A stretch of DNA of 36,229 bases, from the IMG/VR virus record IMGVR_UViG_3300042566_001492. One strand, given 5' to 3'. Source of the stretch: an uncultured virus (IMG/VR IMGVR_UViG_3300042566_001492). Taxonomy: Duplodnaviria; Heunggongvirae; Uroviricota; Caudoviricetes. Below, piece by piece: positions 1 through 36,229 of this stretch. The number at the start of each line of letters is the position of its first letter. Positions within the stretch are counted from its first letter, which is position 1. The notes beneath the pieces were generated by a model. The model searched no databases. It was not told the DNA's origin and was given only the letters and a program-made list of their open reading frames with translations. The position numbers were made by a program, and so were the translations under genes.

Positions 1-342
1 TTTTTCACCTTCTCTAAAAGAATGGTCTGCATAAATTCTTGACAACTCATGCATAATATATTCAACCGTGTCTGAATCTGATGTCCACATTGGAAACCAT
101 TCTTCATCAGCAGTTGGAGGTGATGAATAGTAATAATCTAATTCTTCTCTGAGTCTCTCTGGATCATAACTAGATGATGGTTCACTAACATTTAACCAAT
201 AGTCATAAAAAGAAAATAATTCATCTACATTATTAATAGATTCTTTAGATTTAAGTTCTTCTAATGCTGATTCCCAAATACTTCCTGGTATAGACTTCCA
301 GTTTCTGGACTCAAATAGGTTAAATGATTTTAGATATTTCAT
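1..342 (-). CDS. Hypothetical protein with N-terminal MKYLK tag (partial, runs off window)
   Basis: Read by hand: ATG at 342, MKYLKSFNLFESRNWKS..., open to base 1; TAATATATA at 347-355 (-). Confidence 0.85.
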   Translation of the reverse strand, partial: MKYLKSFNLFESRNWKSIPGSIWESALEELKSKESINNVDELFSFYDYWLNVSEPSSSYDPERLREELDYYYSSPPTADEEWFPMWTSDSDTVEYIMHELSRIYADHSFREGEK

Positions 343-373
343 TTTGTATATATTAAAAATAAGATTATATTTG
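343..373 (+). promoter_or_regulatory. Bacteroidota-type primary sigma promoter (-33 TTTG / -7 TAnnTTTG)
   Basis: TTTG 343-346, 19-nt spacer, TATATTTG 366-373, ATG at 379; spacer contains the divergent TAATATATA motif. Confidence 0.7.
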
Positions 374-378
374 TAGGT

Positions 379-717
379 ATGCAAATCATATTAGGAGATA
401 TTACAATTAAAATGACATCAAATGGACGTGATGAAGATTTTAATACACTTAATTGTATATTCTCAAAAGGTTTCAAAAAAGGTAATGGTTCTAGAGAAGT
501 AAAAAATTTTTACTTTTATCACCAAAGAGGAAAGGGATTAATATTTAAGGGCGGAATGGATTGGTCACCACAAGAAATGAAAGAATATATGGAATTCCTT
601 AAATTAGAATACCAAGAGTTACAAAAGATAAACGATGATATTTCAACAGTAGATTTCTTATCTTATCTAATCTCTAAAAGAAGAACAGAAATTATTAATG
701 ATATAACTAAATTATGA
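379..717 (+). CDS. Hypothetical protein, degenerate C-terminal tag
   Basis: 112 aa ORF ending KRRTEIINDITKL; ATGA overlap with next gene. Confidence 0.75.
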   Translation: MQIILGDITIKMTSNGRDEDFNTLNCIFSKGFKKGNGSREVKNFYFYHQRGKGLIFKGGMDWSPQEMKEYMEFLKLEYQELQKINDDISTVDFLSYLISKRRTEIINDITKL

Positions 718-1325
718 AAGTAATATTCTTAGACATAGATGGTGTGATGAACTCACAGGTCTTTTATAAAGAAAGACACTATCGTAGATGGAGAAAACCA
801 ATTACATATTGGTATGAATTGAAAAGAATTACAAGAAAAGTTTTAGGTATAAAATCTAAACCCATTTCGCTTGCTAATTATAAAACTCCAGACCATCACT
901 ACGAATTTCCTTATCAATTTAATAGATTAGTAGAAGAGACTTGTAAAGAAAAATGGGAATGGTTAAGTGAGTTCTGTAATGATAATAATGTCAAAATCTG
1001 TATCTCATCTACTTGGAAACATCATTTTGGAGACAAAGAGTATAGATTAAAATCAGAACAATGGGGTGATGCTCTTAATCTTTTAGGGTTTAAGACCGAC
1101 ACATTTGTTGGTATCACTCCAAACAAACCATCAAGAATTCGTGGTGAAGAAATAAAAGCTTGGTTAGATAATCATTCAGAAGTAGTCGATTATGCTATTT
1201 TAGATGATGATTCTGATATGTTACCGGAACAAATGGTAAAGTTTCACCACTGTGATGGTTGGTTTGGGATGTCACCAAACCATCTTTATAGAATCAAAAG
1301 ACAGTTTGATGGAAAGAATAACTAG
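714..1325 (+). CDS. HAD-superfamily phosphatase (Swiss-army-knife RNA repair-like HAD domain)
   Basis: IFLDIDGV motif I, ISSTW motif II, RGEEIKAWL, YAILDDDSDM motif IV. Confidence 0.8.
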   Translation: MKVIFLDIDGVMNSQVFYKERHYRRWRKPITYWYELKRITRKVLGIKSKPISLANYKTPDHHYEFPYQFNRLVEETCKEKWEWLSEFCNDNNVKICISSTWKHHFGDKEYRLKSEQWGDALNLLGFKTDTFVGITPNKPSRIRGEEIKAWLDNHSEVVDYAILDDDSDMLPEQMVKFHHCDGWFGMSPNHLYRIKRQFDGKNN

Positions 1326-1448
1326 TTTTATAAAACGTCAGGTATTGAAATTAGCACTTTGGTGGTCGTATAAATTTCCTAAAAGTAAAAATAAAGATAT
1401 ATGGAGATTAGATTAATTTATAATTCATAAATTTTAATATATAAATCT

Positions 1449-2426
1449 ATGAAACATATTAAACTATTTGAGAACTTAGAAGACTTAGTGTATGGTGAAG
1501 TCCAATCACTAATCGACAATAACCAATTCCTTAAAGGCAAGGTAGAGGCTACTAAAGACACTGTATTTGAGGCAGGTGATTACATCTTACTACTTGGTGA
1601 CCTTTCACATATTACAGACGCACACGTTGATGAAACAGTACCAGGTTCTAAATTTAATAAAGGAGTTGATCTCAAAAAGGCTATCATCGAATTAGTTAGT
1701 AATAACAAACCAACTGAAATGACTAAAGGCTTTGGTACAAGTGAAACGAAAGTTGCCGATTCCAAAGAAGCTGAGAAATTTAAGTGGTTAGGATTAGATA
1801 GTAAAAATAAAGTAGGTCAAGAAAATGTACACAAATTAGATCCTAACTCTGATGAATTTAAGTCTATGAATATTTACACTTATAAAGATTCTAGAGGTAA
1901 TGAGTTTAGTATTAAAGTAAAAGAAGGTGCTGGCGAAGAAACTACATTCTTAAGTTTTATTGGAGCTAAGATTGGTGATATTGGAAACAAACCAGTTCTT
2001 TCTGTTATGACGGCATTTCCCGGTAAGAATGGTTCAGAAGTTGCTAATAGAAATGACTTTATGAAATCAGGTTACTATTTTACGACAACTTCTAAGCAAG
2101 TGATAGAATCTTCACACGGTCAAGTTTCTGAATCAAAGGTTCTTAAATTTGATGATTTCAATGAAACTATGCAATATGCGGTCTTAAAAAATTCTAAGGA
2201 TTTACATGATAAAGAAATAGAAAGAAGAAAAGAAAAAGCAGAAAATAAAACTGAAACTAAACCAGTTGATTCTGATAAAACTCAATTTTCTGAAGGTGAT
2301 AAAGATATGGATGTTGAAGAATCAGAACCAGAAATGCAATCACAAGAAGAATCCGAAACAGAAATGCAAGAAGAATCCGAAACAGAAAGACACGAATCAT
2401 TAAGAATCAAATTGTTTGGAAGATAA
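1449..2426 (+). CDS. Hypothetical protein with N-terminal tag and acidic repeat tail
   Basis: MKHIKLFENL; internal ESKVLKFDDFNE; EESETEMQ repeats; TAATATATA at 1435-1443. Confidence 0.85.
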   Translation: MKHIKLFENLEDLVYGEVQSLIDNNQFLKGKVEATKDTVFEAGDYILLLGDLSHITDAHVDETVPGSKFNKGVDLKKAIIELVSNNKPTEMTKGFGTSETKVADSKEAEKFKWLGLDSKNKVGQENVHKLDPNSDEFKSMNIYTYKDSRGNEFSIKVKEGAGEETTFLSFIGAKIGDIGNKPVLSVMTAFPGKNGSEVANRNDFMKSGYYFTTTSKQVIESSHGQVSESKVLKFDDFNETMQYAVLKNSKDLHDKEIERRKEKAENKTETKPVDSDKTQFSEGDKDMDVEESEPEMQSQEESETEMQEESETERHESLRIKLFGR

Positions 2427-3227: not shown

Positions 3228-3563
3228 ATGGATTATAATAAAATGAAAAATCAAACTAACGAAAAGTTCGAATCACAAGATTTTGTAGTAGGTGATGTAT
3301 TTTGTGAAATGTTATCTTATTGGGAAGTTATTGTTGATATAACAGATAATGTACTAACTGTTATCAATAACTTATTTGATATAAAAAAGTACACATATGA
3401 AGAATTCACAACACATTGTAAGTATAATAACATACCAGGATATTGGATTGACTTTATCAAAAATGATTCAAGATATGTTGAAAGATATATTAAAGGTTAT
3501 ATCGAAAAGAATAATCTAAATCAATCTGATATAAGAGAATTCAAGTTAGACCTATTAATGTAA
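3228..3563 (+). CDS. Hypothetical protein with C-terminal tag
   Basis: Ends IREFKLDLLM. Confidence 0.75.
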   Translation: MDYNKMKNQTNEKFESQDFVVGDVFCEMLSYWEVIVDITDNVLTVINNLFDIKKYTYEEFTTHCKYNNIPGYWIDFIKNDSRYVERYIKGYIEKNNLNQSDIREFKLDLLM

Positions 3564-3592: not shown

Positions 3593-3624
3593 TTTGTATA
3601 TAAATAATTTATTCCTTATATTTG
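3593..3624 (+). promoter_or_regulatory. Bacteroidota-type promoter heading the 3.6-6.9 kb operon
   Basis: TTTG 3593-3596, 20-nt spacer, TATATTTG 3617-3624, ATG 3631. Confidence 0.7.
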
Positions 3625-3630
3625 TCAAAT

Positions 3631-3852
3631 ATGGCAACACAACGTAAATTTGCGGTCACTACTGATAACTCAAATGCTATCGAAGTAGATAGTAAGGGAA
3701 GAACCATTATTAAACAATTAGTTCTTTTAGATGAGGTGACTGGTGACGAATGGAATGTTAGACTATCAAATGGTCAACTAATAGTTGAACCATCAGACTT
3801 AGAAAAAAAAAGAGAGTATAAAATTAATAATTTATTAGACGATGAAGTATAA
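3631..3852 (+). CDS. Hypothetical protein with C-terminal tag
   Basis: ATG 3631 preferred to TTG 3622, which lies in the promoter; ends KREYKINNLLDDEV. Confidence 0.75.
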   Translation: MATQRKFAVTTDNSNAIEVDSKGRTIIKQLVLLDEVTGDEWNVRLSNGQLIVEPSDLEKKREYKINNLLDDEV

Positions 3853-4150
3853 ATCATTTACCCCTAAAGTAGACCAAAAACGTAGATTAGTCCTAACTCG
3901 TTTTTATGCCGGAGTTGGAGATGCTCCAAACTTTTGTTACCAAGTTACACGTATTAATAAAAGTGGTGAGGTTGATAAAAAGTTTAAGACACTTTATGCT
4001 TTTGGAACTGACGACTTTTCTTCTATTAAAGAATTCGTACACAGTTCAACTGGACAAGCTGTAAAAGTATTTAAGAAACCCTTTAAGTCAGTGTTTGGTG
4101 TTAAAGAAAAGAATGACCCTAAACAAGTGTGGAAAGGTATTAGTTTATGA
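3842..4150 (+). CDS. Hypothetical basic protein
   Basis: 102 aa ORF overlapping its neighbours in an operon. Confidence 0.75.
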   Translation: MKYKSFTPKVDQKRRLVLTRFYAGVGDAPNFCYQVTRINKSGEVDKKFKTLYAFGTDDFSSIKEFVHSSTGQAVKVFKKPFKSVFGVKEKNDPKQVWKGISL

Positions 4151-4491
4151 AACAGTTGTGGGAAGATATTGAATTAATTTACAACTACTATAATTATAGA
4201 CAACAGTTAGTCATTGAAGTTCTTATTGATAATCTAATGATTAACTCACATGATAATTATTATGTACTACACTCTATTAAACCATCTGAACCACACATAC
4301 ATATCAAAATAGAAAAGAACTATAATCTAACCAGTATGTGGAATGATGATACAGATGGTATCAGCTATGAACTAAGTGTATCACATAGTAATAAAGAAAT
4401 ATCAGATGATGTTGATAAAAAAGTAGAGTTAGTTAATAACATAATCAAACCTCATTTAAGACAAGCTAAACTTAACAAATTAGGAGTATGA
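4147..4491 (+). CDS. Hypothetical protein with C-terminal tag
   Basis: Ends LRQAKLNKLGV; ATGA coupling. Confidence 0.8.
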   Translation: MKQLWEDIELIYNYYNYRQQLVIEVLIDNLMINSHDNYYVLHSIKPSEPHIHIKIEKNYNLTSMWNDDTDGISYELSVSHSNKEISDDVDKKVELVNNIIKPHLRQAKLNKLGV

Positions 4492-4826
4492 GAATAGTAT
4501 CAAACCGTAAGGGAGATTATGTTCAGGTGTTAGAGGATTTTCTTGGTATGACACTAACAACAGAACGTGAAGTAAGATGGAGTGTTGTTCTTTATAATGG
4601 ACAGGTTATGGTATTCCATGAATCATCAACTCAGATGTGGTCAAAAGATGAATTCATTGAATATAAAAATGATTTGGGATTGGCTCAATGGCGTAGCTCT
4701 TCTCTTAAAGTTGATAGAATGAAACTCTTTGATGAACTTCTAAACTCACTTATTAAGTGGGAAAGAGAATTAAAAATAGATGAAGTCTTAAGAGACGAAA
4801 TGGAATATAAATATTGGGTATGTTAA
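4488..4826 (+). CDS. Hypothetical protein with near-terminal tag
   Basis: WERELKIDEVL near C-terminus. Confidence 0.75.
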   Translation: MRIVSNRKGDYVQVLEDFLGMTLTTEREVRWSVVLYNGQVMVFHESSTQMWSKDEFIEYKNDLGLAQWRSSSLKVDRMKLFDELLNSLIKWERELKIDEVLRDEMEYKYWVC

Positions 4827-5347
4827 AAAATAGTTTTTATAGATTTAATCGTTGGTTGGATAATAATGAGATAACTAAATTTTTCTTATTGTTATTTAGT
4901 GTTGCTCTTTTTACAATACCTTTACAATTTGGTAGTTTCTCAGGAGTTGTAATAAGTTTATCTACTTTATCAATTGTTTGTTTATTCACTTTTTTTAGAG
5001 TTAATATAATGAATGATAAAATTGAATTTGATAGAAGTAAATACAATGTTCCAGAGGTTGGTGAAATTGTTGTAGTTAAGAAAGACTTTTATTATGATGG
5101 TTCATTTAGAAAGTTTATCAATCAATCTGATCAAAGTCAAAAACCAAACTGGTGGAAAGTTACTAAAGGAACTGAATTGATTATCTTAAATGTCGAAGAA
5201 ACAGATGATGATTGGAAGATAACACTAACAAATGAGCAAAATTGGCGAACAAAAGGTGACTTATACTTATACTATCTTGATACTAAAGATTATTGGGACA
5301 CTAAAGCAAATATTAGAAGTAAAATATTAAGTAAGTTAGGAATATAA
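4814..5347 (+). CDS. Membrane protein (2 TM) with C-terminal tag
   Basis: Two hydrophobic stretches near N-terminus; ends IRSKILSKLGI. Confidence 0.8.
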   Translation: MGMLKNSFYRFNRWLDNNEITKFFLLLFSVALFTIPLQFGSFSGVVISLSTLSIVCLFTFFRVNIMNDKIEFDRSKYNVPEVGEIVVVKKDFYYDGSFRKFINQSDQSQKPNWWKVTKGTELIILNVEETDDDWKITLTNEQNWRTKGDLYLYYLDTKDYWDTKANIRSKILSKLGI

Positions 5348-5529
5348 TGAGAAGACACCCTGAAATTAAAGGTTATAAACTAATCATGGATTATCCAGGT
5401 AATCGAAGACCTTTAGGATCATTTGAACCATACACCTCTGGTGAGTTTAGTAGATATCCTCAGATTTGGAAACCAGTCTATTATGATGATGTTGTAAGAG
5501 ATAAAAAGTTAAAAAAACTAGGAATATGA
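5347..5529 (+). CDS. Small protein with C-terminal tag
   Basis: Ends VRDKKLKKLGI. Confidence 0.8.
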   Translation: MRRHPEIKGYKLIMDYPGNRRPLGSFEPYTSGEFSRYPQIWKPVYYDDVVRDKKLKKLGI

Positions 5530-5765
5530 AAGCAGGAGATATTGTTAGACTTAAAAGTGAACATCAATTATATGAATTGGTACCAGGTTTATGTGTTGTG
5601 GGTGAAGTTAGAAAGTTTTCATTTGGAAAAAGACCAAATAGATATCACATCAAAACTTTGAACAAAGACTCAGATGGTTCTCATAGAATGACCTGGGTAG
5701 AAGAACAAGAAATTATATCAATATCTGAAATAAGACAAGAAAGATTAGAAAAATTAGGAATATGA
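5526..5765 (+). CDS. Small SH3/KOW-like protein with C-terminal tag
   Basis: MKAGDIVRLK start typical of small beta-barrels; ends IRQERLEKLGI. Confidence 0.75.
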   Translation: MKAGDIVRLKSEHQLYELVPGLCVVGEVRKFSFGKRPNRYHIKTLNKDSDGSHRMTWVEEQEIISISEIRQERLEKLGI

Positions 5766-5983
5766 TGTATATTTATAAACCACGTAGTGATTGGCATAAG
5801 AGATCCGACTTAACTGAAGGAAAAACTTATGATTGTGAGTGGAATGGTGAAATGGTTTATTCATCTACCGGTGTTTACTTTAGATTGATTTGTGATTTTG
5901 GACATGAGGTTGAAGTACATGAAAGTCAATTTGTTCCCATAGATAAATTGAGAGAGGAAAAATTAAATGAAATAGGAATATGA
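5762..5983 (+). CDS. Small protein (LTxGKxY family) with C-terminal tag
   Basis: LTEGKTYDC; ends LREEKLNEIGI. Confidence 0.8.
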   Translation: MMYIYKPRSDWHKRSDLTEGKTYDCEWNGEMVYSSTGVYFRLICDFGHEVEVHESQFVPIDKLREEKLNEIGI

Positions 5984-6447
5984 AAGAATTATATAAACAA
6001 CTTACTGATACAATAAACTCACTTCCGGGTATTGAATTGACAGGTGATAACTTATCAAACCCATTTGATAAGATTAAATCCAGATGGGGTGGGTGTTGCC
6101 TTTTCTTTTGGTCTGATGAAAAAGATGCTGAAGGTCTTTTCTTTCTTACTAGATGTATAGACACTAGATATTGGGAATTTGGACATCTATGGAGAATTGA
6201 ATTAACTTGTTCAGATCAAATACACTCAAATGGAGACAGACCAATTACTTATAATATTTACAGACCATTTATTGGAGAAGAAACTGAGGACCAAATCGAT
6301 AAAGAGATAAATTCACTCATTGAAAATATGCATTATCATTTTCATCATGATAATTTTATGTCTGGTTTTAATATGGATAGAACTAAATATGATCTAAAAG
6401 AGTGGAAAAGAGAAATGAAGTTAAATGATTTAGGAGTATTAAAGTGA
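5980..6447 (+). CDS. Hypothetical protein with C-terminal tag
   Basis: Ends KREMKLNDLGVLK. Confidence 0.8.
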   Translation: MKELYKQLTDTINSLPGIELTGDNLSNPFDKIKSRWGGCCLFFWSDEKDAEGLFFLTRCIDTRYWEFGHLWRIELTCSDQIHSNGDRPITYNIYRPFIGEETEDQIDKEINSLIENMHYHFHHDNFMSGFNMDRTKYDLKEWKREMKLNDLGVLK

Positions 6448-6564: not shown

Positions 6565-6915
6565 ATGAAAGATTTTTTAGATGATACAGACCTTTTTATA
6601 AAGGAAAATTTAGACTGGATATTAGCCGGTAAATATGATGATAGGTTTAGTAAAGAACAATTAGATAAAATGATTGAACTTAGTTTTCTTTATAATCACA
6701 TAACAATTGAGAATGATGCACTTAAATTTGAATATGATAAATTACAAATAAATCTAACTAATCTTTATGAGCAGTATAGTGATTTAGTTTATCAAATAGG
6801 AAAAGAAGGCGTAAAGAATATGATTATCACCACAATCACCTCACAAGATAATTTTAAGTCAGGGTTTAAGTCATTTATAAGAGATAAGAAGATTAATAAG
6901 ATTATTGATTTATAA
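6565..6915 (+). CDS. Hypothetical protein with C-terminal tag
   Basis: Ends IRDKKINKIIDL. Confidence 0.8.
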   Translation: MKDFLDDTDLFIKENLDWILAGKYDDRFSKEQLDKMIELSFLYNHITIENDALKFEYDKLQINLTNLYEQYSDLVYQIGKEGVKNMIITTITSQDNFKSGFKSFIRDKKINKIIDL

Positions 6916-7245
6916 TCCTAATTCCTTTAATCTTTGTTGTCTAGCATCTGATACAGTTGGAATATCAACACGGGTTGATTTTCCTTTTGTACCATCAGAA
7001 AGTGTAGGAGCGTATCTTATTCTATCATCAAATTTATTTAATCGAGAAAACAGTTTCTTTTCTTTAATAGGAATAAAACCTTTGATAGTACTAAACTGAG
7101 ATTCAGTTAATTCAATCTCTTCGTATTTTAGATAAGTACTATAATCTCCATCTTCACCAGCCCATCTAGGTAGTAAAATAAGTTTATATTGACCATTGCT
7201 TTCGGTTATATAGTCTCCACTATTTGAGTTTATCCAATAATTCAT
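6910..7245 (-). CDS. Hypothetical protein with C-terminal tag
   Basis: Ends ARQQRLKELGL; ATG at 7245 (ORF extends to TTG 7257). Confidence 0.75.
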   Translation of the reverse strand: MNYWINSNSGDYITESNGQYKLILLPRWAGEDGDYSTYLKYEEIELTESQFSTIKGFIPIKEKKLFSRLNKFDDRIRYAPTLSDGTKGKSTRVDIPTVSDARQQRLKELGL

Positions 7246-7330
7246 CTGATTCTTCAATTACATTATTATCCTCGTCATAAATGACTACAGGATTTCCGTA
7301 TATATCCCAAGTTATTTGTTGTATTTCCAT
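7220..7330 (-). CDS. Small acidic protein (36 aa)
   Basis: MEIQQITWDIYGNPVVIYDEDNNVIEESDELLDKLK*; TATATTTG at 7334-7341 (-) directly upstream. Confidence 0.55.
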   Translation of the reverse strand: MEIQQITWDIYGNPVVIYDEDNNVIEESDELLDKLK

Positions 7331-7352
7331 ACACAAATATAAAAAAAATTAA

Positions 7353-7561: not shown

Positions 7562-7759
7562 ATGGAATCAAATATGAAAAAAGTATACGAAGGTAAAATC
7601 TACGAGACTAAAGATAGTTTTGTAGTACAAACAGTTCTGTCCGAGAGATCAGTTAGTATTCAAGATCCTTCTAATTTTATTAACAAACAATTAAAAGAGT
7701 TTGATGGTAAGAATGTTAAAGTAGAAGTTGTTATTAAGATTACCGAATTAGAATCTTAG
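7562..7759 (+). CDS. Hypothetical protein
   Basis: 65 aa ORF, TATATTTA promoter-like box upstream. Confidence 0.7.
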   Translation: MESNMKKVYEGKIYETKDSFVVQTVLSERSVSIQDPSNFINKQLKEFDGKNVKVEVVIKITELES

Positions 7760-27342: not shown

Positions 27343-27391
27343 TGTTTTTTACTACCTTAAAACTTCGCCAGAATTCTACCATAAAACTAAT

Positions 27392-27712: not shown

Positions 27713-27892
27713 CCACCATTTCTTTTTAAGTACTTTATTTAGTTTTTGTTCTCTTAATGCTTGTGGTGAGTAGTATCTATTATAACAATCATTACATATC
27801 ATAACAATATCTATTTCTCCTGTGGTAGGATCAAATTCTTTACTTGTCATTATTTTACCACATTTATCACAACCACCAGTAAGTACTATCAT
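27704..27892 (-). CDS. Small zinc-ribbon protein with C-terminal tag
   Basis: CDKC...CNDC; LREQKLNKVL. Confidence 0.75.
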   Translation of the reverse strand: MIVLTGGCDKCGKIMTSKEFDPTTGEIDIVMICNDCYNRYYSPQALREQKLNKVLKKKWWLF

Positions 27893-28752: not shown

Positions 28753-29427
28753 TTAGTTATTAAAGAGTTTATCTAGTTTAATTGTTCTTATATCTTCTGT
28801 TATTTGTTTTTTCAGTTTATTTAGTTCGTTATCTTTTATTATGTTAGGATGTTTTATAACATTATCTAGTTTATAGATATAGTGATTTATTCTTTGTTCA
28901 GAGTGTTGGTAAAGAAACCAATCTAGTTTATTTACTGATACGAATTCATTTTGGTTAAGATTTACGTCTTTATATAGTTGTGATAGTTTATCTAATACTA
29001 TTTGGTTATTATTTAATAAAACAATCATATCTACGTTTATATAGATGATATCTTTGTTATTACTTATAATATCATTATAAAGTAATTCGGAGTATATTAG
29101 AGGTATTGGAGTTTTCAGTTTATGGTAAAGAGTATTTACTCTGGTTAACCAGTTTTTGTATAAGGTTTCTGATTGTGATTTTATTAGTTGTTTATTTTCG
29201 AGGAACCATCTAAGATTGTTTTTAGTATCTTCTAGGTTTATTTTTGGTGTGTTGTCGATTAAGTTATTTTCTAGTGCGTTTAGGATGATAGTTGGATAAA
29301 ACTGTTTGATATCGATTAATATTACATCTTGTACGGTTTTTGATTCGTAGTCTAGGTTTATCCAAGTAAATCCAGTAGCGGGTAAATCTTGGTGTAAGGC
29401 TTGTAATATTTGGTCTTTGTAAAGCAT
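28753..29427 (-). CDS. Degenerate family-B DNA polymerase palm-like protein with C-terminal tag
   Basis: DIKQFYPTII (motif A-like), VNTLY (motif B-like), IYINVDMI (motif C-like); ends IRTIKLDKLF. Confidence 0.55.
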   Translation of the reverse strand: MLYKDQILQALHQDLPATGFTWINLDYESKTVQDVILIDIKQFYPTIILNALENNLIDNTPKINLEDTKNNLRWFLENKQLIKSQSETLYKNWLTRVNTLYHKLKTPIPLIYSELLYNDIISNNKDIIYINVDMIVLLNNNQIVLDKLSQLYKDVNLNQNEFVSVNKLDWFLYQHSEQRINHYIYKLDNVIKHPNIIKDNELNKLKKQITEDIRTIKLDKLFNN

Positions 29428-29473
29428 TTCGTGTAAAGATAAGGATAATGTGGTGGGTGGCCAAAATTCCTGG

Positions 29474-29531: not shown

Positions 29532-29587
29532 TCTTCGACATCAGAATAAATTAGAATAATTAGATAAGGGTAATAATATATAGTATA

Positions 29588-30127
29588 ATGAGATACATAA
29601 AAACATATGAGGGTTTATTTGATTTCTTGAGAAAGAAAGAAAAGGTTAAGGTTACATTTGATGATATCATGGAATGTTTATATGATTTAACTGATGAGTC
29701 TAGAATTAAAAATGAATTGAATGGTGATAGTTTCGATGGTATATTTGCTTCTCAAGATGTTGTATTTAAGAAAAGACCATCATTGAGTTTAGATGATGAC
29801 TTTGATGCTTTTATGAATGATGAGCTTTTCAGAGATATGAACTTTACGATAAGAAGAAATTCTATTTCTTTTGATTTTGTTTATAACCCAAATGAAATAT
29901 CAGATGAAGAGGTTAATGAATTACTATTAAATTGTAAATCTAAGTTAGTAATATATGGTTGTAAGATATCATTCTTTATTGGTTGGGGTCAAGGAGAAGG
30001 TGGTTATAATGATAAAGAATGGTCAGACTTTATTTCTATGATTGATAAAACAATAAAAAAAACATATTCACCTGAAAGAAGAAGAAACATTACTGTTAAA
30101 ATAGAATCACCTTCTGGGTTTAATTAA
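29588..30127 (+). CDS. N-tagged family protein
   Basis: MRYIKTYEGLF; IMECLYDLTD; TAATATATA 29574-29582. Confidence 0.8.
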   Translation: MRYIKTYEGLFDFLRKKEKVKVTFDDIMECLYDLTDESRIKNELNGDSFDGIFASQDVVFKKRPSLSLDDDFDAFMNDELFRDMNFTIRRNSISFDFVYNPNEISDEEVNELLLNCKSKLVIYGCKISFFIGWGQGEGGYNDKEWSDFISMIDKTIKKTYSPERRRNITVKIESPSGFN

Positions 30128-30351
30128 ACTCCAAGTTTTTTTAATTTCATTTCTCTTAGTTCATCTACACTTAATTCAATATCTTCCCAATTACCGGTAT
30201 CTAGTACTTGAACTTGTTTTTTATAACATCGTTTACACAATCTTTTTGTTAGAGTGATATGAGCTTTGTCGTCTCCTAAAGAAGAGTGTATATGTATTTT
30301 ATCTTGTTTATAAGACCAGTTATGTTTTATTATTTTACAAAGAAATGACAT
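30124..30351 (-). CDS. Small Cys/His zinc-binding protein (DUF1660-like) with C-terminal tag
   Basis: LCKIIKHNW...CKRC; ends LREMKLKKLGV. Confidence 0.75.
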   Translation of the reverse strand: MSFLCKIIKHNWSYKQDKIHIHSSLGDDKAHITLTKRLCKRCYKKQVQVLDTGNWEDIELSVDELREMKLKKLGV

Positions 30352-30406
30352 AAGGGTTATAGTTAGTAATTTGTTTTTGTTACCTACTTATTTAATATAT
30401 AATGTA

Positions 30407-30958
30407 ATGAGATACTTAAAGATATATGAAGAATTTGATGAGATACCTTCTAATTTTATTAGATTAGATAGTATTGGTCATGTTTTAGATCCTAATGAAG
30501 GTCTTATTTATGCTCTTCTTAAAAGAGGTGGATATGACCAAATGAATCCATATGATGTTGATGAACATGAAGTTCAAGGGTTAAGTATTGAAGATATGGA
30601 GGTATTAGATAAGTATTGGTTATCAGTAGATACTTTGGTTAAAGACAAGATTAATTTTGATTTGATAGAAACTACTAAAGAGTTGGCCCTAAATTATTTA
30701 GATGAAGGAGACCGTTTGATTATTTACGCATTTATTTCAGACATTTTAGTTTATACCGAGATATTTAGTCATGATGTAGAGTCGGTTAAGTACCCAAAAT
30801 ACTTTAAGACTAAGTTAGATATTATTAGTAGTAGTGATGATATTAAGTATATAGTTAGATTAGATGATAAGAAATACTATTTTGAATCTGAAAAATCTAA
30901 AGAGTTGAGTTCTTTAGTTAAAGAATATTTTCCAACTGAAAAAGTAGATAGTCGTTGA
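30407..30958 (+). CDS. Hypothetical protein with N-terminal tag
   Basis: MRYLKIYEEF from ATG 30407; TAATATATA 30393-30401. Confidence 0.8.
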   Translation: MRYLKIYEEFDEIPSNFIRLDSIGHVLDPNEGLIYALLKRGGYDQMNPYDVDEHEVQGLSIEDMEVLDKYWLSVDTLVKDKINFDLIETTKELALNYLDEGDRLIIYAFISDILVYTEIFSHDVESVKYPKYFKTKLDIISSSDDIKYIVRLDDKKYYFESEKSKELSSLVKEYFPTEKVDSR

Positions 30959-30963: not shown

Positions 30964-31929
30964 TCAACTTAATTCTTTTTTAATCATATCGAATACTTTT
31001 TGATAATCAAATTTGACAATGATTGCTTTTGTACCGATAGATTTTTTAGCCGCTTCTTGTTGCCAACCTCCTTCTTTAAATCCTTTAATATCCTCTTCTT
31101 TAAGTTCTCTGAACTCTGCTTTGTATCCGTATTTACCTAGGTCATAAGATCCGGTATTATTAAAGTTACCAAGTACATATTTAACAGCCTTATCGAACAC
31201 TTCAGAATTTGTATTATAAACTCCTTTAGTTATAGAATTCCAATCAAATGTTTTAATAAATATTCCATTTTTTTGTTGATAAAGACTTTTTCCAAAAAAT
31301 TCTTCTCTAAACTTTTTAGTGTAAAACTTATTACCTGATGAAAATCTATCAAAATTATCAAGAACTTGTTTTGAGATTTTATTTTCAACTTTATCATTGA
31401 GTTCATCATCTAACTTTTTAGTAATAAAATCTCCAGTAACATCAGAACTGGCGACAAGCCAAACAGAATATCCATTATTTTCAATAGTTAAATTATGATA
31501 AGCTTTATCAAAACGAGCACAAAAAGAAGCTATCTCTTCATAGATAGCAAGAAGTCCGTTAACATCACTATCCAAATGATAACTTATATCTCTGCTAGGA
31601 TACCCACCAAGTGAAACCGATTTATATAATTTACCACCTTCTTTCTTTTTAAACAATTTGATTTCATAGATAGCATTCTTTGCCCATTCTATATTAGATT
31701 TATATTCTCGATTATAATAATCACTACTATATCCACCTTTTATCGGATTACCTTTTTCATCTGCTAAATATCTTTTTTGAGATTTCTCGTCTATCTCAAA
31801 TCCGATATCAGTTAAATAAAGTAAAGATTCGTAAATATTATTCCAAGAATACTTGAATCCATCTGGTATAATATCATCTTCATCTTCATCAATATCCTCA
31901 AATATCTTATAAGATCTTAAATATTTCAT
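30964..31929 (-). CDS. N-tagged family protein
   Basis: MKYLRSYKIFED; IYESLLYLTDIGF. Confidence 0.85.
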   Translation of the reverse strand: MKYLRSYKIFEDIDEDEDDIIPDGFKYSWNNIYESLLYLTDIGFEIDEKSQKRYLADEKGNPIKGGYSSDYYNREYKSNIEWAKNAIYEIKLFKKKEGGKLYKSVSLGGYPSRDISYHLDSDVNGLLAIYEEIASFCARFDKAYHNLTIENNGYSVWLVASSDVTGDFITKKLDDELNDKVENKISKQVLDNFDRFSSGNKFYTKKFREEFFGKSLYQQKNGIFIKTFDWNSITKGVYNTNSEVFDKAVKYVLGNFNNTGSYDLGKYGYKAEFRELKEEDIKGFKEGGWQQEAAKKSIGTKAIIVKFDYQKVFDMIKKELS

Positions 31930-31933: not shown

Positions 31934-31949
31934 TATATATTAATATATA
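31934..31949. promoter_or_regulatory. Palindromic bidirectional TAATATATA element
   Basis: TATATATTAATATATA with a start codon exactly 4 nt away on each side. Confidence 0.75.
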
Positions 31950-31953: not shown

Positions 31954-32448
31954 ATGAAATTCTTAAAGCCTTGGAACTTATTTGAATCAGTATTTTATTT
32001 AACTAATAAGGAAGATAAGTCTTCCAAAGAGTTATCAAAAGAGTTAGAATGGATTGAAGACTCTACTTTAGACTTAGTGGATTCTGGATGTACCATTAAA
32101 GTAAGAACTTACTATGTCGAAGAAAAATCACTTGGTTTAAATATTACAATTGAAACATACAGGTTAAATCAAATGCTTCCAATTGAAGTAGGTGATAATC
32201 TACTTACAATTGATTCTTATTTAAGAGAATTAGGATTTGTAGGTTATAGTCCGTATGATTATGATAATCCCTACTCATCAAGTCGTTATCAAACTAAAGT
32301 AGACGCTTCACTTGATGATGTTAAAAATAACTTTGAGAGAGAGTTGTCACAGTTTGTTCAAATGTTATCTAGGTTTACAGTTAAAGCTCCATTTGATACG
32401 GTCAGAGTGTCTTATTTTAGACCTGACGTAATTGAAACTGATAATTAA
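31954..32448 (+). CDS. N-tagged family protein
   Basis: MKFLKPWNLFES from ATG 31954; IEDSTLDLVDSG; IDSYLRELGF. Confidence 0.85.
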   Translation: MKFLKPWNLFESVFYLTNKEDKSSKELSKELEWIEDSTLDLVDSGCTIKVRTYYVEEKSLGLNITIETYRLNQMLPIEVGDNLLTIDSYLRELGFVGYSPYDYDNPYSSSRYQTKVDASLDDVKNNFERELSQFVQMLSRFTVKAPFDTVRVSYFRPDVIETDN

Positions 32449-32458: not shown

Positions 32459-32551
32459 ATGAAGTGGATTAAATTATATGAACTTTATAATTATGAACTT
32501 AGTCAGAAGTTATCAGAAATATATAAAAGTGAACTTATAATTAAACCATGA
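32459..32551 (+). CDS. 30-aa peptide consisting mostly of the N-terminal tag
   Basis: MKWIKLYELYNYELSQKLSEIYKSELIIKP*; TAATATATA 32446-32454; ATGA-coupled to next gene. Confidence 0.6.
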   Translation: MKWIKLYELYNYELSQKLSEIYKSELIIKP

Positions 32552-32961
32552 AACATTTAAGAAAATTTAATGAGTCTTCTGTTGAAGATATTAAAAGTAA
32601 TTTAGAGGATATCTTATCTGATTTTTCTGATAATTATATTCCTGTTGAGATTAGACATACTACGGTTACAAAAACAATGGCTTTTTCAATTGCTTTAGGT
32701 GATGAGTATGCTGAGACTTCCAGCAAGCGTCTTCATATGATTAGTATTGTTCCTAAAGATAATAAAGATGAGTTTCTAAGATTATATGATTATATGGAAT
32801 CAGAAGGTTATGACTTTTCGTCAATGTCTTATGACTTTGCTGGAGATATCGTTATATTAAAAATAGAACAAATTGGATTAGGTATAGACTCTTTCTCTAA
32901 TCAGTTATTCAATGGTATAGACGAAACTTGCTACTTAAAATTATTCTTTAGAAAAAAATAA
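32548..32961 (+). CDS. N-tagged family protein
   Basis: MKHLRKFNES; LEDILSDFSD; RLYDYMESEGY. Confidence 0.85.
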   Translation: MKHLRKFNESSVEDIKSNLEDILSDFSDNYIPVEIRHTTVTKTMAFSIALGDEYAETSSKRLHMISIVPKDNKDEFLRLYDYMESEGYDFSSMSYDFAGDIVILKIEQIGLGIDSFSNQLFNGIDETCYLKLFFRKK

Positions 32962-32982: not shown

Positions 32983-33729
32983 GTGAAATACTTAAAAACA
33001 TATAAAATATTCGAGTCTTGGATTGATGATCCTAAGTTCTTTAGATTTAGTAGAGAAAAGATGGATGAAGGTGAATTTACACCAGGTAAAAGAACAATGT
33101 GGGGACCTGATAATTTCAATGATTGTTTAATTAAATTTGGATTTCCTGATAAAAAACAATGTATTCATTTTATGGATTCCGTTGCTTTCAATCCTGAATA
33201 TAAAGGATCTTATGGTAGTTATACTTATCAAATAACGGTTGATAATAACTCAAGTTTAGGTTGGTCATTTATTGTTCCAATCAATGAGTGGTTTTATAAA
33301 GGAAGTCCACTTCAGTATGCTTTAAGAAATGGTAATGAAGTTGTTAAATCAATAATGGAAACTCCTTATAAAGATTTAGGTCCTTATGATGAAAAATTAG
33401 ATGAGATAACTAAATACTTATTTGATTTTGATGTTATTGGAACTGGAACTATTGAAGACTTGAAGAAGTCACCACATTATGGTAAAGAAAGTTTATTTGT
33501 TTGGACTTCTGATAAAGTTATTATTACAAACTATGAGATTAAAAAAGAACCAAAGGTAGGTACTTATAAAAATGAAAGAGTTTTAACTTCTAACGACTTC
33601 ATAGAAAGAGGAGTTTCACCTCAAAACATTGGAAAATTCTATCAATCAGAATTAGGTAAATCGGTTAAAAATCTTTCAAGAGAAGAAGCTCTTGAAGTCT
33701 TAGATAAATGGATATTGACTCAACAATAA
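32983..33729 (+). CDS. Hypothetical protein with N-terminal tag
   Basis: GTG start, MKYLKTYKIFES; AAATATATA upstream. Confidence 0.85.
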   Translation: MKYLKTYKIFESWIDDPKFFRFSREKMDEGEFTPGKRTMWGPDNFNDCLIKFGFPDKKQCIHFMDSVAFNPEYKGSYGSYTYQITVDNNSSLGWSFIVPINEWFYKGSPLQYALRNGNEVVKSIMETPYKDLGPYDEKLDEITKYLFDFDVIGTGTIEDLKKSPHYGKESLFVWTSDKVIITNYEIKKEPKVGTYKNERVLTSNDFIERGVSPQNIGKFYQSELGKSVKNLSREEALEVLDKWILTQQ

Positions 33730-33789: not shown

Positions 33790-34350
33790 TTAGATATTTA
33801 GACTTTCAATGATTCTGTTAAAAACAGAAGAAGTTCTTAAACTTTCTCTTGATAATGATGGAGCGGTTGTTTTTGCCATTTCTTCTTCACCCTCAACACC
33901 TGGGATAGGATCATTTCCTTTACCATAGAATGGATTTTCTTGACCTCTAGCTATAGCTTGTCCTGCAACTTTAGCATTAAATCCAATCGTGTTAGAATCA
34001 ATTCCTAAATCTACTGCAAAAACTGAAAGTACTTCAGTTAATAACTGAAACTGGTCAACATTAAATCCTTTACATAATCTATTATAAATGTCTCTAACTT
34101 CAGGAGCTGTTGTCGGAAATAAATTTACTCCGGTTTCTTCTTTGTAACGTTTTAAGGTTGGAAGTCCGTCAGCACTTGAATAAAACGCTGCTATAGTTAA
34201 TAACAATAGACTTAGTAAGTCCTTTTTATTGCTGTCTAAAGTTTTAGATAATTCCAATAAAGCTTGGTTTCTACCTTCTTTAGTTATTTTTTTAGGTACG
34301 AATTCTTCATTAACAGAGTTAAACTTCGTAAAACTTTTTATTGATTTCAT
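33790..34350 (-). CDS. Hypothetical protein with N-terminal tag
   Basis: MKSIKSFTKFNSVNEE from ATG 34350 (alternative start 34359). Confidence 0.8.
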   Translation of the reverse strand: MKSIKSFTKFNSVNEEFVPKKITKEGRNQALLELSKTLDSNKKDLLSLLLLTIAAFYSSADGLPTLKRYKEETGVNLFPTTAPEVRDIYNRLCKGFNVDQFQLLTEVLSVFAVDLGIDSNTIGFNAKVAGQAIARGQENPFYGKGNDPIPGVEGEEEMAKTTAPSLSRESLRTSSVFNRIIESLNI

Positions 34351-34448
34351 AAATATCATTTTATTTTTATTATATATTTATTTTAGAAATTAAAAAAATG
34401 ACTTTTTTATAAAATTTTCTTAGTTTATATTAATTAATATATATGGTT

Positions 34449-34844
34449 ATGAAATATCTAAAATCATATAATTTATTTGAGTCTAAGACTGATGTTATGT
34501 ATGAAATATATGACGCTGATGAACTAGACAGAATTGACCTCATCATCGATGATATCAAAGATATGGTTTTAGAGTTAGGTGATATTGGTTTATACACAAC
34601 GGTTGGTTATACACCAATGACTTTAGTGGGAAGAGAAAAGACACCTAAGATAATGGTTGAGATTCAAGGTGATTCATTACTATGTTCATACAATGAAGAT
34701 GATATTTATTCAGCTTTTGAAAGGATTAAAGAATATACCAGTTCAAAAGGTTATGTTACTGGATTCGGCAATTGGGAAAGAGAAACTAGAGACTCAAACG
34801 GAAGAAAAAATATTTCAGTTTATCAAATGTTAATACAAAAATGA
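34449..34844 (+). CDS. N-tagged family protein
   Basis: MKYLKSYNLFES; IKDMVLELGDIG; TAATATATA 34435-34443. Confidence 0.85.
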   Translation: MKYLKSYNLFESKTDVMYEIYDADELDRIDLIIDDIKDMVLELGDIGLYTTVGYTPMTLVGREKTPKIMVEIQGDSLLCSYNEDDIYSAFERIKEYTSSKGYVTGFGNWERETRDSNGRKNISVYQMLIQK

Positions 34845-35695
34845 GATACTTAAAATCATACAAACTATTTGAGAGTCATTCAGATATCATTGATCAATGT
34901 GATGATATACTCATTGAGCTAAGAGATGATGGATTTAAGACTAAAATTTCATCACCAGCAGACTGGATAGTTGAAGTATATGTATCGAAGCCTGATTTTG
35001 TCTGGAGTGACGTTAAAGACACACTTTTGAGATTAAAATACTTTATGGAATCTAATGGTTATATTTTATCTGGTGAACTCGGTCGATGTGAAAGTCATTC
35101 AATATATGATCCTATGACATTTGATGTTATCACAACTAAATCAACTACATTAAAATTTCATAAGAATGATGCGGTTTCAGAATCTGTTGAAGTTGATAAT
35201 AGTAAAGATATTATTACAGAATGTTTTTTACCAGTATCAGATATTGTTAATGTAAGTATTGGTGAGTTTAAGAATATGATTTCAGTTAATGTCAACTTAG
35301 ATAGCAGAGTTAGTGGAGAATTAAAAGAGTCAAAGTGGGGTGTTGAGTATAAGCCAGTAATTGATGGCGAGTATATAAGTGAAGAAATATCTTCAGCTAT
35401 CAATCATTGTTTAGGTGAAGATTTTGTTCTTTACAGAGCTGAAGTCAAATGGAAAAACGCTGGTGAGTGGTCTGAGATGAATCCTGACAAAAGTGGAATC
35501 GGACCTGGATTTCTAGAAGCTTATTTTACACAAAGAGGATTTATACAAAAAAGTTGGGAAATGAATAGAAGGCAGATAGTTCGTAATGTTAAGTCTTCTA
35601 ATTGGACTAATATTAAACACGATACTAGTTTAGTTCCTGAATTTATTTTGTCAAGAGGTGATATGCTGCGTTCTATCAAACTATACTTTCAATAA
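34841..35695 (+). CDS. N-tagged protein with two family domains
   Basis: MRYLKSYKLFES; DDILIELRDDGF and ITECFLPVSD. Confidence 0.85.
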   Translation: MRYLKSYKLFESHSDIIDQCDDILIELRDDGFKTKISSPADWIVEVYVSKPDFVWSDVKDTLLRLKYFMESNGYILSGELGRCESHSIYDPMTFDVITTKSTTLKFHKNDAVSESVEVDNSKDIITECFLPVSDIVNVSIGEFKNMISVNVNLDSRVSGELKESKWGVEYKPVIDGEYISEEISSAINHCLGEDFVLYRAEVKWKNAGEWSEMNPDKSGIGPGFLEAYFTQRGFIQKSWEMNRRQIVRNVKSSNWTNIKHDTSLVPEFILSRGDMLRSIKLYFQ

Positions 35696-35717
35696 TCCTA
35701 ATTTAATATATAATCAA

Positions 35718-36161
35718 ATGAAACGATTAAAGACATATAAATCATTTGATAGAGTTGATGAGGGTTGGAAGGAAAATATCTTAGCCGCTATTACATTAGC
35801 ATCAAATGTTGCTTACTCACAACCTAAATTTGACACAAGTTTTCAAGTCACTCCTAAGACTGAGTTAGTTGAACCAGAACCAGTTGATGATAAAAGACAA
35901 TTCTATTCTGCTTGTTTTCAATTGTGTGAAGAATTAAAGAATCCTCAATTAACATTTGAGCAAAGAAAAGGTTTAGTTGAGGCTCAACTTTACTTTCAAT
36001 CAAAAAGAGATGGCCAAAAACCTCAGAAGTTATCTGATTATGGAAAAGCAGCCGTTAAGTCAGTAATGAATACTATTATGAATTTAGATATTGATGAAGT
36101 TGCTAGACTTTCTGAACTGGGTCAAACTGGAAAACTAACTGCTGAGATATTAGGAAAATGA
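35718..36161 (+). CDS. N-tagged protein with internal signal-peptide-like segment
   Basis: MKRLKTYKSFDRVDEG then ILAAITLASNVAYSQP; TAATATATA 35704-35712. Confidence 0.8.
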   Translation: MKRLKTYKSFDRVDEGWKENILAAITLASNVAYSQPKFDTSFQVTPKTELVEPEPVDDKRQFYSACFQLCEELKNPQLTFEQRKGLVEAQLYFQSKRDGQKPQKLSDYGKAAVKSVMNTIMNLDIDEVARLSELGQTGKLTAEILGK

Positions 36162-36229
36162 AACAATTAATTAGGTACAAACTATTTTCAGAGGCTCGTT
36201 CTGAAAGAGAATTAACACAGACTATATCA
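36158..36229 (+). CDS. N-tagged protein (partial)
   Basis: MKQLIRYKLFSEARSE..., open to window end. Confidence 0.65.
   Translation, partial: MKQLIRYKLFSEARSERELTQTIS

Follow-up and report, generated by a model that had tools for sequence, protein, structure and literature searches.

More than half of the genes on a 36,229-base stretch of DNA from an uncultured Caudoviricetes virus (IMG/VR record IMGVR_UViG_3300042566_001492; this whole stretch is hereafter called the window) encode one of two short terminal peptides on otherwise unrelated proteins. The first, the N-tag, is a ten-residue start, MK[YH][LI]Kx[FY]E[ESN][FY], and the second, the C-tag, is an amphipathic helix at the C-terminus, phi-x-x-phi-R-[DEQ]-x-K-[LI]-x-x-[LI]-[LG], mostly ending 1-4 residues before the stop. 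The two tags exclude one another, each is associated with its own class of promoter, and the arrangement is general to a clade of related megaphages. By comparison with phage T4, the N-tag may be a capsid-loading or propeptide signal of the kind known as the capsid-targeting sequence (CTS), and the C-tag may be a docking or disposal helix on early proteins; we give this joint reading an even chance of being right. No description of either tag was found in the literature, as covered by titles and abstract openings, and a term search of the bS21-phage paper (PMC9723584) returned neither "promoter" nor "motif".

Two terminal tags that exclude one another

The window (27-31% G+C) is tightly packed with short genes on both strands, and simple rules for open reading frames (ORFs) and transcription units, with greedy choice of the longest ORF of at least 40 residues, gave a set of 69 non-overlapping ORFs. 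The N-tag pattern, M[KR][YH..][LI][KR]x(0-6)[FY]x(0-2)[ED] at the ORF start, matches 20 of the 69, and five variants, three of them at the window ends, were added by eye (Table 1), so that about 25 carriers stand beside the roughly 27 counted in the initial annotation. The C-tag pattern, R[DEQ..]x[KR][LI]xx[LIVM] in the last 22 residues, matches 18 ORFs in its stricter and 20 in its looser form; one further case escapes the pattern (4814-5347) and another is doubtful (21901-22395), in agreement with an earlier estimate of about 21.

Both motifs are specific to their positions. The N-tag pattern does not occur after any of the 159 internal methionines of the window proteins, and all 15 occurrences of its core, taken without the methionine, lie within the first 25 residues. 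The same core is N-terminal in 37 of 41 occurrences in G001, a relative of 476,236 bases (97% complete by the tool's estimate), and in 27 of 28 in a second relative, G002; two of the four internal hits in G001 and the single one in G002 fall at an internal methionine that, judged by eye, is possibly the true start. The C-tag pattern is found in 18 of 69 C-termini (26%) compared with 2 of about 620 internal windows of equal size (0.3%). A logo over 105 C-tags has hydrophobic residues at -4 and -1, followed by R, D/E, x, K, L/I, N/K/D, x, L/I and L/G, and the eight-residue core is followed by 0-13 further residues, ending exactly at the terminus in 2 of the 105 and two residues short of it in 48.

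No window ORF carries both tags under the strict patterns (0 of 69; one-sided Fisher p 7e-4), and a looser pattern yields one weak double carrier, at 32983. The exclusivity that the initial annotation had described extends to the two relatives, which were fetched whole: G001 has 661 ORFs with 46 N-tags and 73 C-tags, G002 has 261 ORFs with 34 and 14, and neither has a double carrier.

The tags are also widespread beyond these genomes. At least 121 IMG/VR loci, on contigs of up to 640 kb, combine the promoter motif TAATATATA (see below) with MK[YH][LF]K. Among the listed loci are 103 distinct ORFs in which positions left free by the search pattern can be read: F/Y occupies residue 7 in 92 and residue 10 in 50, and E occupies residue 8 in 63 and residue 9 in 30. 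The strict C-terminal form R-[DE]-x-K-L-x-x-L-G-I-stop occurs at 44 IMG/VR loci on about 30 contigs, at least four of which recur among the listed N-tag matches. Tenacibaculum phage PTm1, the nearest cultured phage, has a single N-tag pattern match in 224,680 bases and therefore does not use the N-tag.

The tags follow promoter class

The motif TAATATATA, hereafter the late-type box, has 19 exact sites in the window compared with 3.9 +/- 1.9 expected from 200 first-order shuffles. Fourteen of the 19 lie 5' of an N-tag gene or variant, four precede untagged genes (9393, 12791, 23113 and the PaaA gene at 13522) and one is ambiguous. At 11 of the 19 window sites and in 84 of 124 listed IMG/VR matches, 13-14 nt separate the start of the box from the ATG, which would leave late mRNAs almost without a leader. 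At 9359-9374 and 31934-31949, two opposed late-type boxes overlap to form a palindrome that heads divergent late genes.

The second class of promoter has a TAnnTTTG box shortly 5' of the first gene of a unit. TAnnTTTG is the -7 consensus of Bacteroidota housekeeping promoters, a pattern that these host-type boxes appear to match. They share a longer CC[TG]TAT[AC]TTT[GA] context at 366, 3617, 7334-7341 (-), 11158, 19758, 20892, 22576 and 29434-29441 (-), and several lie only 2-6 nt before an ATG (19758, 3617). Another host-type box of good form, TTCCTTATCTTTG, stands at 12233. No convincing ORF occupies the roughly 180 nt behind it (region 12233-12420), and the box could, from its position, serve a small RNA or a long leader for 12416-12709.

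Genes were grouped into units by same-strand gaps of at most 150 nt, with boxes swallowed by long ORF calls also sought. In the window, 19 of 20 N-tag genes belong to units with a late-type box, as against 10 of the 49 other genes (p 7e-9), while C-tag genes are absent from such units (0 of 18 versus 29 of 51) and are concentrated in TAnnTTT[GA] units (15 of 18 versus 15 of 51; p 9e-5). The proposal that N-tag genes, or the heads of their units, follow the late-type box is thereby upheld, and it holds in the relatives, where late units contain 36 of 46 N-tag genes in G001 (versus 161 of 615; p 2e-12) and 24 of 34 in G002 (versus 60 of 227). C-tag genes are depleted from late units in G001 (4 of 73 versus 193 of 588; p 1e-7), a link that is not significant in G002. 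Tag and promoter class are thus associated in the window and across G001, and the N-tag half of the association recurs in G002.

The claim that C-tag genes mostly lie in operons behind host-type boxes also holds. Boxes are present at or next to all six positions named for it (366, 3617, 7334, 11158, 19758 and 29434), and the 15 of 18 count supports it. Two points weigh against it: under a stricter first pass (gaps of at most 80 nt) the C-tag link was non-significant (6 of 18 versus 11 of 51), with the N-tag result unchanged, and the early box is degenerate, with 51 TAnnTTTG 8-mers in the window, 12 of them intergenic. The late-type box is not private to N-tag genes, as 103 untagged ORFs of G001 own one. 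Contigs from four lake metatranscriptome libraries fall on both gene classes; they are uninformative on strand, ends, level and timing, and DNA carry-over is possible.

The tags behave as portable peptides

The bodies to which the tags are attached are diverse, as the initial annotation had it. Once the tags are trimmed off, BLASTP (E<1e-3) finds likeness in 3 of the 190 N-tag pairs of the window and in 0 of its 153 C-tag pairs. C-tag bodies span distinct Pfam families (DUF1660, DUF2158 and Cse60), and Pfam and PHROGs otherwise annotate almost none of the tagged proteins. The body of the 11197 protein (phrog_3972) is homologous to T5p065 of phage T5; the alignment runs up to the tag, which T5p065 does not have. 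Within the clade, DKVR[DE]xKLNxIL is kept in 119 of 120 listed homologs of the 11197 protein, and in all six C-tag ortholog pairs between the window and G001, conservation of the final 14 residues equals or exceeds that of the body (mean 0.73 versus 0.48). At the other terminus, the 34841 protein has about 105 extra residues between its N-tag and the domain shared with its ortholog.

These comparisons bear on a view in which the tags are the best-kept remnants of two large, fast-diverging paralog families. G002 does contain true paralogs in runs, alike in the N-tag and the next 30 residues (MKYLKLFENFNQSEID…), five G002 paralogs share a 30-residue C-terminal region, and the three related N-tag pairs of the window are of the same kind of evidence. 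Most bodies, however, are unrelated and differ in length and Pfam family, the T5 homolog has the same body without the tag, and the 34841 ortholog pair combines the N-tag with different architectures, which makes common descent of the tagged proteins a highly improbable explanation.

Codon usage speaks to whether selection acts on peptide or nucleic acid. The conserved C-tag residues use synonymous codons at about genome frequencies, with Arg encoded as both AGA and CGT in the window and G001, and the endings differ (LGI, ILK, ILN, LLNEY) around a constant R-D/E-x-K-L/I core. N-tag codons 5-8 show ordinary synonymous usage, whereas codons 2-4 are biased relative to the genome (AAA 93% versus 78%, TAC 60% versus 19%, TTA 84% versus 56%). 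Seven of the 20 window N-tag genes lack a promoter of their own and two start with GTG, indicating that the tag does not depend on a promoter directly 5' of the gene. Given the ordinary codon usage, the varied endings and these promoterless and GTG-start N-tag genes, we conclude that selection on both tags acts mainly on the peptide and that the first codons are under a small additional constraint. That constraint tells against a purely peptide-level account: codon 3 favors NAC for His (CAC 47% versus 32% genome-wide) as it does for Tyr, suggesting some nucleotide-level or translational constraint too.

Could the N-tag then be mainly a nucleic-acid or translation signal, with late mRNAs that start at or next to the ATG, first codons that act as a ribosome-loading or initially transcribed region, and a peptide that is a by-product? 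The 13-14 nt spacing of the late-type box, with its near-zero leader, and the bias of codons 2-4 are in its favor. However, among 100 N-tag genes of the window, G001 and G002, 46 lack their own late box, and the NAC bias is greater in those without one (30 of 45) than in those with one (21 of 47). In addition, codon 3 switches between Tyr and His, codons 5-8 are ordinary, and the untagged G001 ORFs that own a late box do so without the peptide. We therefore regard this explanation as very unlikely.

An analogous proposal for the C-tag is that it is the by-product of a DNA or RNA element at gene ends, either for translational coupling (AGGA and an overlapping ATG within the LGI-stop) or as a linker for cassette recombination, as PeSL modules are in T4-type phages. 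C-tag genes of G001 do abut or overlap the next start more often (47 of 73) than all genes do (185 of 661), as do 12 of 15 LGI-type ends. Yet 12 of 18 C-tag genes in the window and 26 of 73 in G001 have no abutting downstream start, and some tagged genes are unit-final or convergent (6910, 27287, 30124). The genome-like synonymous codons and the variable endings around a fixed core also argue for selection on the peptide, and we consider a gene-end element to be highly improbable.

The N-tag as a candidate capsid-loading signal

The relatives indicate what such an N-terminal peptide could be for. Gene order in G001 is T4-like, with portal, head maturation protease and capsid protein genes, and an N-tag gene lies directly upstream of the portal gene. 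The protease matches phrog_207 (E 1e-31) and is 29% identical to T4 gp21 over 107 residues, including the GE.(D/N)HP and VSSR motifs, and it scores 22.9 bits against Pfam PF03420 (S77), below the cut-off. The capsid protein is a relative of gp23, and G001 also encodes a late sigma factor that matches the gp55-like phrog_234 (E 4e-6). As judged from these predicted genes, the clade is a megaphage group with a T4-type portal, a gp21-like protease, a gp23-like capsid protein and a gp55-like late factor.

According to two reports, the T4 CTS is an N-terminal, portable sequence of about 10 residues that is cut once by the prohead protease gp21, and the internal proteins IPII and IPIII are loaded through a CTS that gp21 removes (PMC9958956, PMC8442874). 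The N-tag is alike in that it occupies about ten residues at the very N-terminus, begins with MK, contains aromatic residues and Glu, is portable across unrelated proteins, and is encoded by genes that stand behind the phage's late-type promoter, in a fast-turnover region, in a clade whose relatives encode a T4-type portal, protease and capsid module. It is unlike the CTS in that it is known from sequence alone and is found on about 7% (G001) to 30% (window) of ORFs, not on a few proteins.

The G001 protease (59876-62038, locus L154) is a fusion with a scaffold-like region in which [LI]AE triplets, 11 in all, recur every 14 residues. The repeats, about eleven copies of YSEY[LI]AENLDKNI, are followed by an acidic His/Glu-rich stretch and resemble the T4 CTS core YQEFIAE. 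By analogy, the triplets are putative sites of the kind that the T4 protease cuts. In 16 of the 20 N-tag proteins of the window, residues 1-14 include a hydrophobic-x-E sequence, compared with 5 of 20 for residues 21-34 of the same proteins, and the residue three before Glu is often polar.

Taken together, the late-type promoter is probably read with the gp55-like factor, and the N-tag would mark a subset of late-promoter proteins as a counterpart of the CTS, taking unrelated accessory proteins into the prohead scaffolding core. There the gp21-type protease would probably clip the tag past its conserved Glu, and the cargo would be carried inside the capsid and delivered to the next cell along with the DNA. 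By this analogy, the N-tag appears to be a large expansion of a known kind of signal. We infer the expression timing, the cleavage, the packaging and the binding partner.

Several observations weigh against this reading. Sequence identity between the N-tag and the CTS is nil beyond flavor, and many N-tags have T, K, R or S, not L or I, three positions before the Glu. The T4 capsid cleavage site LTE↓A aligns with a stretch of the G001 capsid protein that has no Glu (BLAST, weak, E 0.024), and the cleavage rule of the clade is consequently not established; a candidate G001 capsid cut site, INE↓N, was dropped, as BLAST aligns LTE↓A elsewhere. The 25 tagged cargo genes in 36 kb are far above the handful in T4, and none of 78 N-tag proteins of G001 and G002 matches a PHROG of the head or tail categories. 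One G001 N-tag protein (252984-253577 (-), MRYLKLYEEF…) has the Toprim part of a DNA primase as its body (phrog_849, E 3e-36), an unexpected cargo for a capsid-loading tag. Moreover, the head genes are seen in relatives only, which are 60-72% identical to the window in one marker protein. A complex prediction for two copies of the G001 scaffold repeats with the portal-adjacent N-tag protein scored 0.00 twice, without controls, and we draw nothing from it.

The earlier suggestion that late proteins are routed to the virion head holds as far as the likeness to the CTS fits the T4-type head module of the clade, and falls short in that the late box also serves untagged genes. Because the late promoter is not specific to N-tag genes, a genome-wide sorting code, though plausible, stays something that we infer.

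Candidate readers of the C-tag

For the C-tag, no known counterpart passes comparison. An AlphaFold2 model of the 11197 protein (60 sequences, overall mean pLDDT 73.5) places residues 108-119 in a terminal helix, with block means of 66 and 53 as against 64-88 for most of the body. With charged residues inside its hydrophobic face, the helix looks from its sequence like a docking element for a specific groove. Appended to small unrelated proteins of host-type, presumably early, operons, the C-tag could be a docking peptide for one shared reader, and our guess is a proteolytic or unfolding machine that removes early proteins or hands them over. The candidate readers encoded in relatives would be ClpP with a ClpC-like ATPase, or a metallopeptidase with a vWA domain.

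The relatives encode ClpP (one seen in G001, two in G002), a ClpC-like ATPase of 700-710 residues, ClpS, DnaK (Hsp70) and DnaJ, and four of five encode a DUF2201 vWA-metallopeptidase (DUF2201_N). The ClpS, ClpC-like, ClpP, DnaJ and DnaK genes are located at 40370-40654, 284643-286775, 440754-441512, 317471-318523 and 328736-330619 in G001 and at 16311-17015, 155678-156346 and 137112-139214 in G002, and in both genomes one ClpP gene sits amid arrays of C-tag genes. ClpX was not seen among the scanned proteins of the relatives, and an AAA_3 (MoxR) partner for the vWA-peptidase was found in none of five relatives at E<=0.001.

Clp unfoldases read C-terminal degrons and tethers such as the ssrA tag, the MuA-type tail and the XB peptide of SspB. 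Like these, the C-tag is a short C-terminal peptide on unrelated proteins, the Clp kind being read by one machine; many C-tags end in hydrophobic-hydrophobic-Lys, and the relatives have ClpP, the ClpC-like ATPase and ClpS. It differs in being a helix of 13-16 residues with an invariant Arg and Lys. Two points count against such a reader: the motif is not bound to the extreme C-terminus, unlike ssrA-type degrons, with 0-13 residues beyond it, and the Clp and vWA-peptidase ideas would draw on gene presence in relatives and on the ClpP gene among C-tag arrays. Judged from gene presence, we give low odds to a docking or disposal tag read by a Clp-like or vWA-peptidase machine.

The same genes suggest a different account, in which neither tag is capsid-related and both are handles for a phage proteostasis kit (DnaK/DnaJ, ClpP, the ClpC-like protein, ClpS and the vWA-metallopeptidase) that governs folding or timed destruction, the N-tag serving late and the C-tag early accessory proteins. 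That the kit is encoded in relatives, and that no N-tag protein matches the head/tail category, would suit it. Gene presence is not binding, however, the ClpC-like protein has no recognizable N-terminal receptor domain, and the length, position, conserved Glu and likely late expression of the N-tag fit the T4 precedent better; this account is, in our judgment, unlikely.

Two other kinds of terminal peptide were compared with the C-tag. Encapsulin cargo-loading peptides and microcompartment encapsulation peptides address enzymes to a protein shell, and encapsulin shells share the phage capsid fold. They are likewise terminal, short and amphipathic, or hydrophobic with Gly; a difference is that C-tag genes lie in early-type, not late, operons. 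Targeting to a compartment, whether a phage nucleus or a bacterial microcompartment (BMC), was set aside after neither tubulin nor a BMC shell protein was found in three relatives, with chimallin outside the search. The T4 proteins gp43, gp55 and gp33 bind the sliding clamp by C-terminal tails, which are short and hydrophobic and occur on several proteins, as the C-tag does, but the proteins that bear the C-tag are small and have no known function. The C-tag is missing from all the replication and late-transcription proteins listed for G001 (polymerase fragment, gp55-like factor, ligase, helicases, primase and gp32), so that a clamp tail is unlikely; a profile search did not find the gp45 C-domain family.

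As to the initial proposal that early proteins go to a common partner or compartment, the C-tag is indeed portable and follows promoter class, and for a compartment neither the tubulin nor the BMC shell families were found in three relatives. The C-tag as a docking or disposal helix for early proteins is the reading that we retain.

Genomic setting and other features

A megablast search of positions 1-20000 against 50,697 phage records gave no match at the DNA level, and a 38-mer scan of IMG/VR gave no exact copy of the window. At the protein level, proteins encoded on IMG/VR contigs of 172-476 kb match the P-loop protein at 20922-21608 with 60-72% identity. The G001 capsid protein is 69% identical to that of LR756502, a 642-kb uncultured phage, and 29% identical to those of Lak phages and PTm1, and the DNA runs that contain the window are labeled lake-water metagenomes. 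From the P-loop and capsid relationships and the lake-water runs, we take the window to be an accessory region of an uncultured megaphage. For only 12 of its 69 proteins did G001, G002 or 30 related loci yield a homolog (E<1e-5), which makes the window a fast-turnover region. The host-type promoter boxes and lipoprotein-like signal peptides suggest that the host is a freshwater member of the Bacteroidota.

The recognizable metabolic enzymes (PaaA, BKACE, a NeuD-like hexapeptide transferase and a gamma-glutamyl cyclotransferase, GGCT) are untagged in the ORF annotation, as had been noted earlier. Three untagged genes have signal-peptide-like starts (2431-3150 (-), 9393-9983 (+) and 23113-23997 (+)); they comprise a GDSL lipase, a non-specific DNA/RNA endonuclease and one of unknown function, and late-type boxes precede two of them. 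A 62-residue ORF at 24015-24203 (+) duplicates the first ~22 residues of the GGCT-like gene at 25408-25857 (+), 1.2 kb downstream, and resembles a truncated duplicate, with two N-tag genes between the copies. ARAGORN found no tRNA in the window. Rfam gives a tRNA match at 21769-21874 (+), of 106 nt and 34.5 bits (gathering score 29), and as it covers model positions 1-71 there is probably an insertion inside; the ORF at 21655-21849 (-) that overlaps it is probably spurious.

Table 1 Promoter boxes and tagged genes of the window, by class and position.
Position	Strand	Feature	Remark
347..355	-	Late-type box	TAATATATA
366..373	+	Host-type -7 box	TATATTTG, before 379-717 and 714-1325
1435..1443	+	Late-type box	TAATATATA
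3617..3624	+	Host-type -7 box	TATATTTG, head of operon 3631-6447(-6915)
7334..7341	-	Host-type -7 box	TATATTTG, before 6910-7257 gene
9359..9374	both	Back-to-back late-type boxes	9359-9367 minus, 9366-9374 plus
10459..10467	-	Late-type box	TAATATATA
10564..10572	+	Late-type box	TAATATATA
11158..11165	+	Host-type box	TATCTTTA, before 11197
12777..12785	+	Late-type box	before untagged 12791-13516
14471..14479	-	Late-type box	before untagged PaaA gene 13522-14460
19758..19765	+	Host-type -7 box	TATATTTG, 2 nt before ATG 19767
23100..23108	+	Late-type box	before untagged signal-peptide gene 23113
24255..24263	+	Late-type box	TAATATATA
26351..26359	-	Late-type box	TAATATATA
27268..27275	+	Host-type box	TAGGTTTG, before 27287
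29434..29441	-	Host-type box	TATCTTTA, before 29427
29574..29582	+	Late-type box	TAATATATA
30393..30401	+	Late-type box	TAATATATA
31934..31949	both	Back-to-back late-type boxes	31934-31942 minus, 31941-31949 plus
34435..34443	+	Late-type box	TAATATATA
35704..35712	+	Late-type box	TAATATATA
1..342	-	N-tag gene (variant, by eye), off left end	MKYLKSFNLFE; TAATATATA 13 nt upstream
1449..2426	+	N-tag gene, 325 aa	MKHIKLFENLE
7748..8689	-	N-tag gene	MKYLKIFDNFN; no own promoter
8699..8956	-	N-tag gene	MLHIKTFENYG; no own promoter
8984..9334	-	N-tag gene	MKNIKTFENFG
9984..10454	-	N-tag gene	MKHLKRFNENI
10595..11104	+	N-tag gene	MKYLRLFENFT
18108..18515	-	N-tag gene	MKYLKRFSETL; no own promoter
18520..18927	-	N-tag gene	MRYLKTYKIFE; no own promoter
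18924..19718	-	N-tag gene	MKHLTPYKIFE; preceded by TAATTTATA variants
24282..24737	+	N-tag gene	MKYVKLFEDWT
24767..25411	+	N-tag gene, GTG start	MKHLKLFEDWS; no own promoter
25920..26345	-	N-tag gene (variant, by eye)	MKYLQSKSEYLKRFNES
26629..26841	-	N-tag gene, given inner ATG start	MKHIRKFNENI; box 26910-26918 is 77 nt upstream
29588..30127	+	N-tag gene	MRYIKTYEGLF
30407..30958	+	N-tag gene	MRYLKIYEEFD
30964..31929	-	N-tag gene	MKYLRSYKIFE
31954..32448	+	N-tag gene	MKFLKPWNLFE
32548..32961	+	N-tag gene	MKHLRKFNESS
32983..33729	+	N-tag gene, GTG start	MKYLKTYKIFE
33790..34350	-	N-tag gene (variant, by eye)	MKSIKSFTKFNSVNEE
34449..34844	+	N-tag gene	MKYLKSYNLFE
34841..35695	+	N-tag gene	MRYLKSYKLFE; no own promoter
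35718..36161	+	N-tag gene (variant, by eye)	MKRLKTYKSFD
36158..36229	+	N-tag gene (variant, by eye), off right end	MKQLIRYKLFSE
3228..3563	+	C-tag gene (looser form)	ends SDIREFKLDLLM
3622..3852	+	C-tag gene, true start probably ATG 3631	ends EYKINNLLDDEV; G001 ortholog keeps tag
4147..4491	+	C-tag gene	ends HLRQAKLNKLGV
4488..4826	+	C-tag gene	RELKIDEVL 12 residues from end
4814..5347	+	C-tag gene, outside pattern	ends NIRSKILSKLGI (…RSKILSKLGI)
5347..5529	+	C-tag gene, 60 aa	ends VVRDKKLKKLGI
5526..5765	+	C-tag gene, 79 aa	ends EIRQERLEKLGI
5762..5983	+	C-tag gene, 73 aa	ends KLREEKLNEIGI
5980..6447	+	C-tag gene	ends REMKLNDLGVLK
6565..6915	+	C-tag gene	ends IRDKKINKIIDL
6910..7257	-	C-tag gene, last of unit	ends DARQQRLKELGL
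11197..11559	+	C-tag gene, phrog_3972 body	ends DKVRDKKLNQIL
11614..11826	+	C-tag gene	ends PLREQKLKELGL
12416..12709	+	C-tag gene (looser form)	ends SIRGEKIAEMFR
20266..20844	+	C-tag gene	ends SEDRQKKLNQLI
21901..22395	+	Doubtful C-tag	ends RKEALQLLGI; preceded by TAATATATT
27287..27712	+	C-tag gene	ends IIRQIKLSSILK
27704..27892	-	C-tag gene	REQKLNKVL 8 residues from end
28753..29427	-	C-tag gene	ends IRTIKLDKLFNN
30124..30351	-	C-tag gene, DUF1660-like zinc ribbon	ends ELREMKLKKLGV

Implications

In its most far-reaching form, the joint reading would give Bacteroidota megaphages two channels of addressing. Dozens of late accessory enzymes per genome would be loaded into the capsid by way of the N-tag and injected as a ready-made set of effectors, and early proteins amounting to more than a tenth of the proteome would be docked on one phage proteolytic or unfolding machine. 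Early proteins, perhaps together with host targets that they hold, would then be cleared on schedule, in a phage counterpart of tagging by F-box-type adaptors. We think this picture rather doubtful.

Both ideas are open to direct testing with peptides, reporters and cloned protease, Clp or peptidase genes, without a cultured phage. If the N-tag is a capsid-loading signal, inspection of sequence alone would list the injected arsenal of a whole clade of giant phages, and the N-tag would be a ready-made means of packaging foreign proteins. If the C-tag has one partner, more than 10% of a megaphage proteome would be under a single, undescribed recognition event, which would offer a new handle on how huge phages organize and time their early program.

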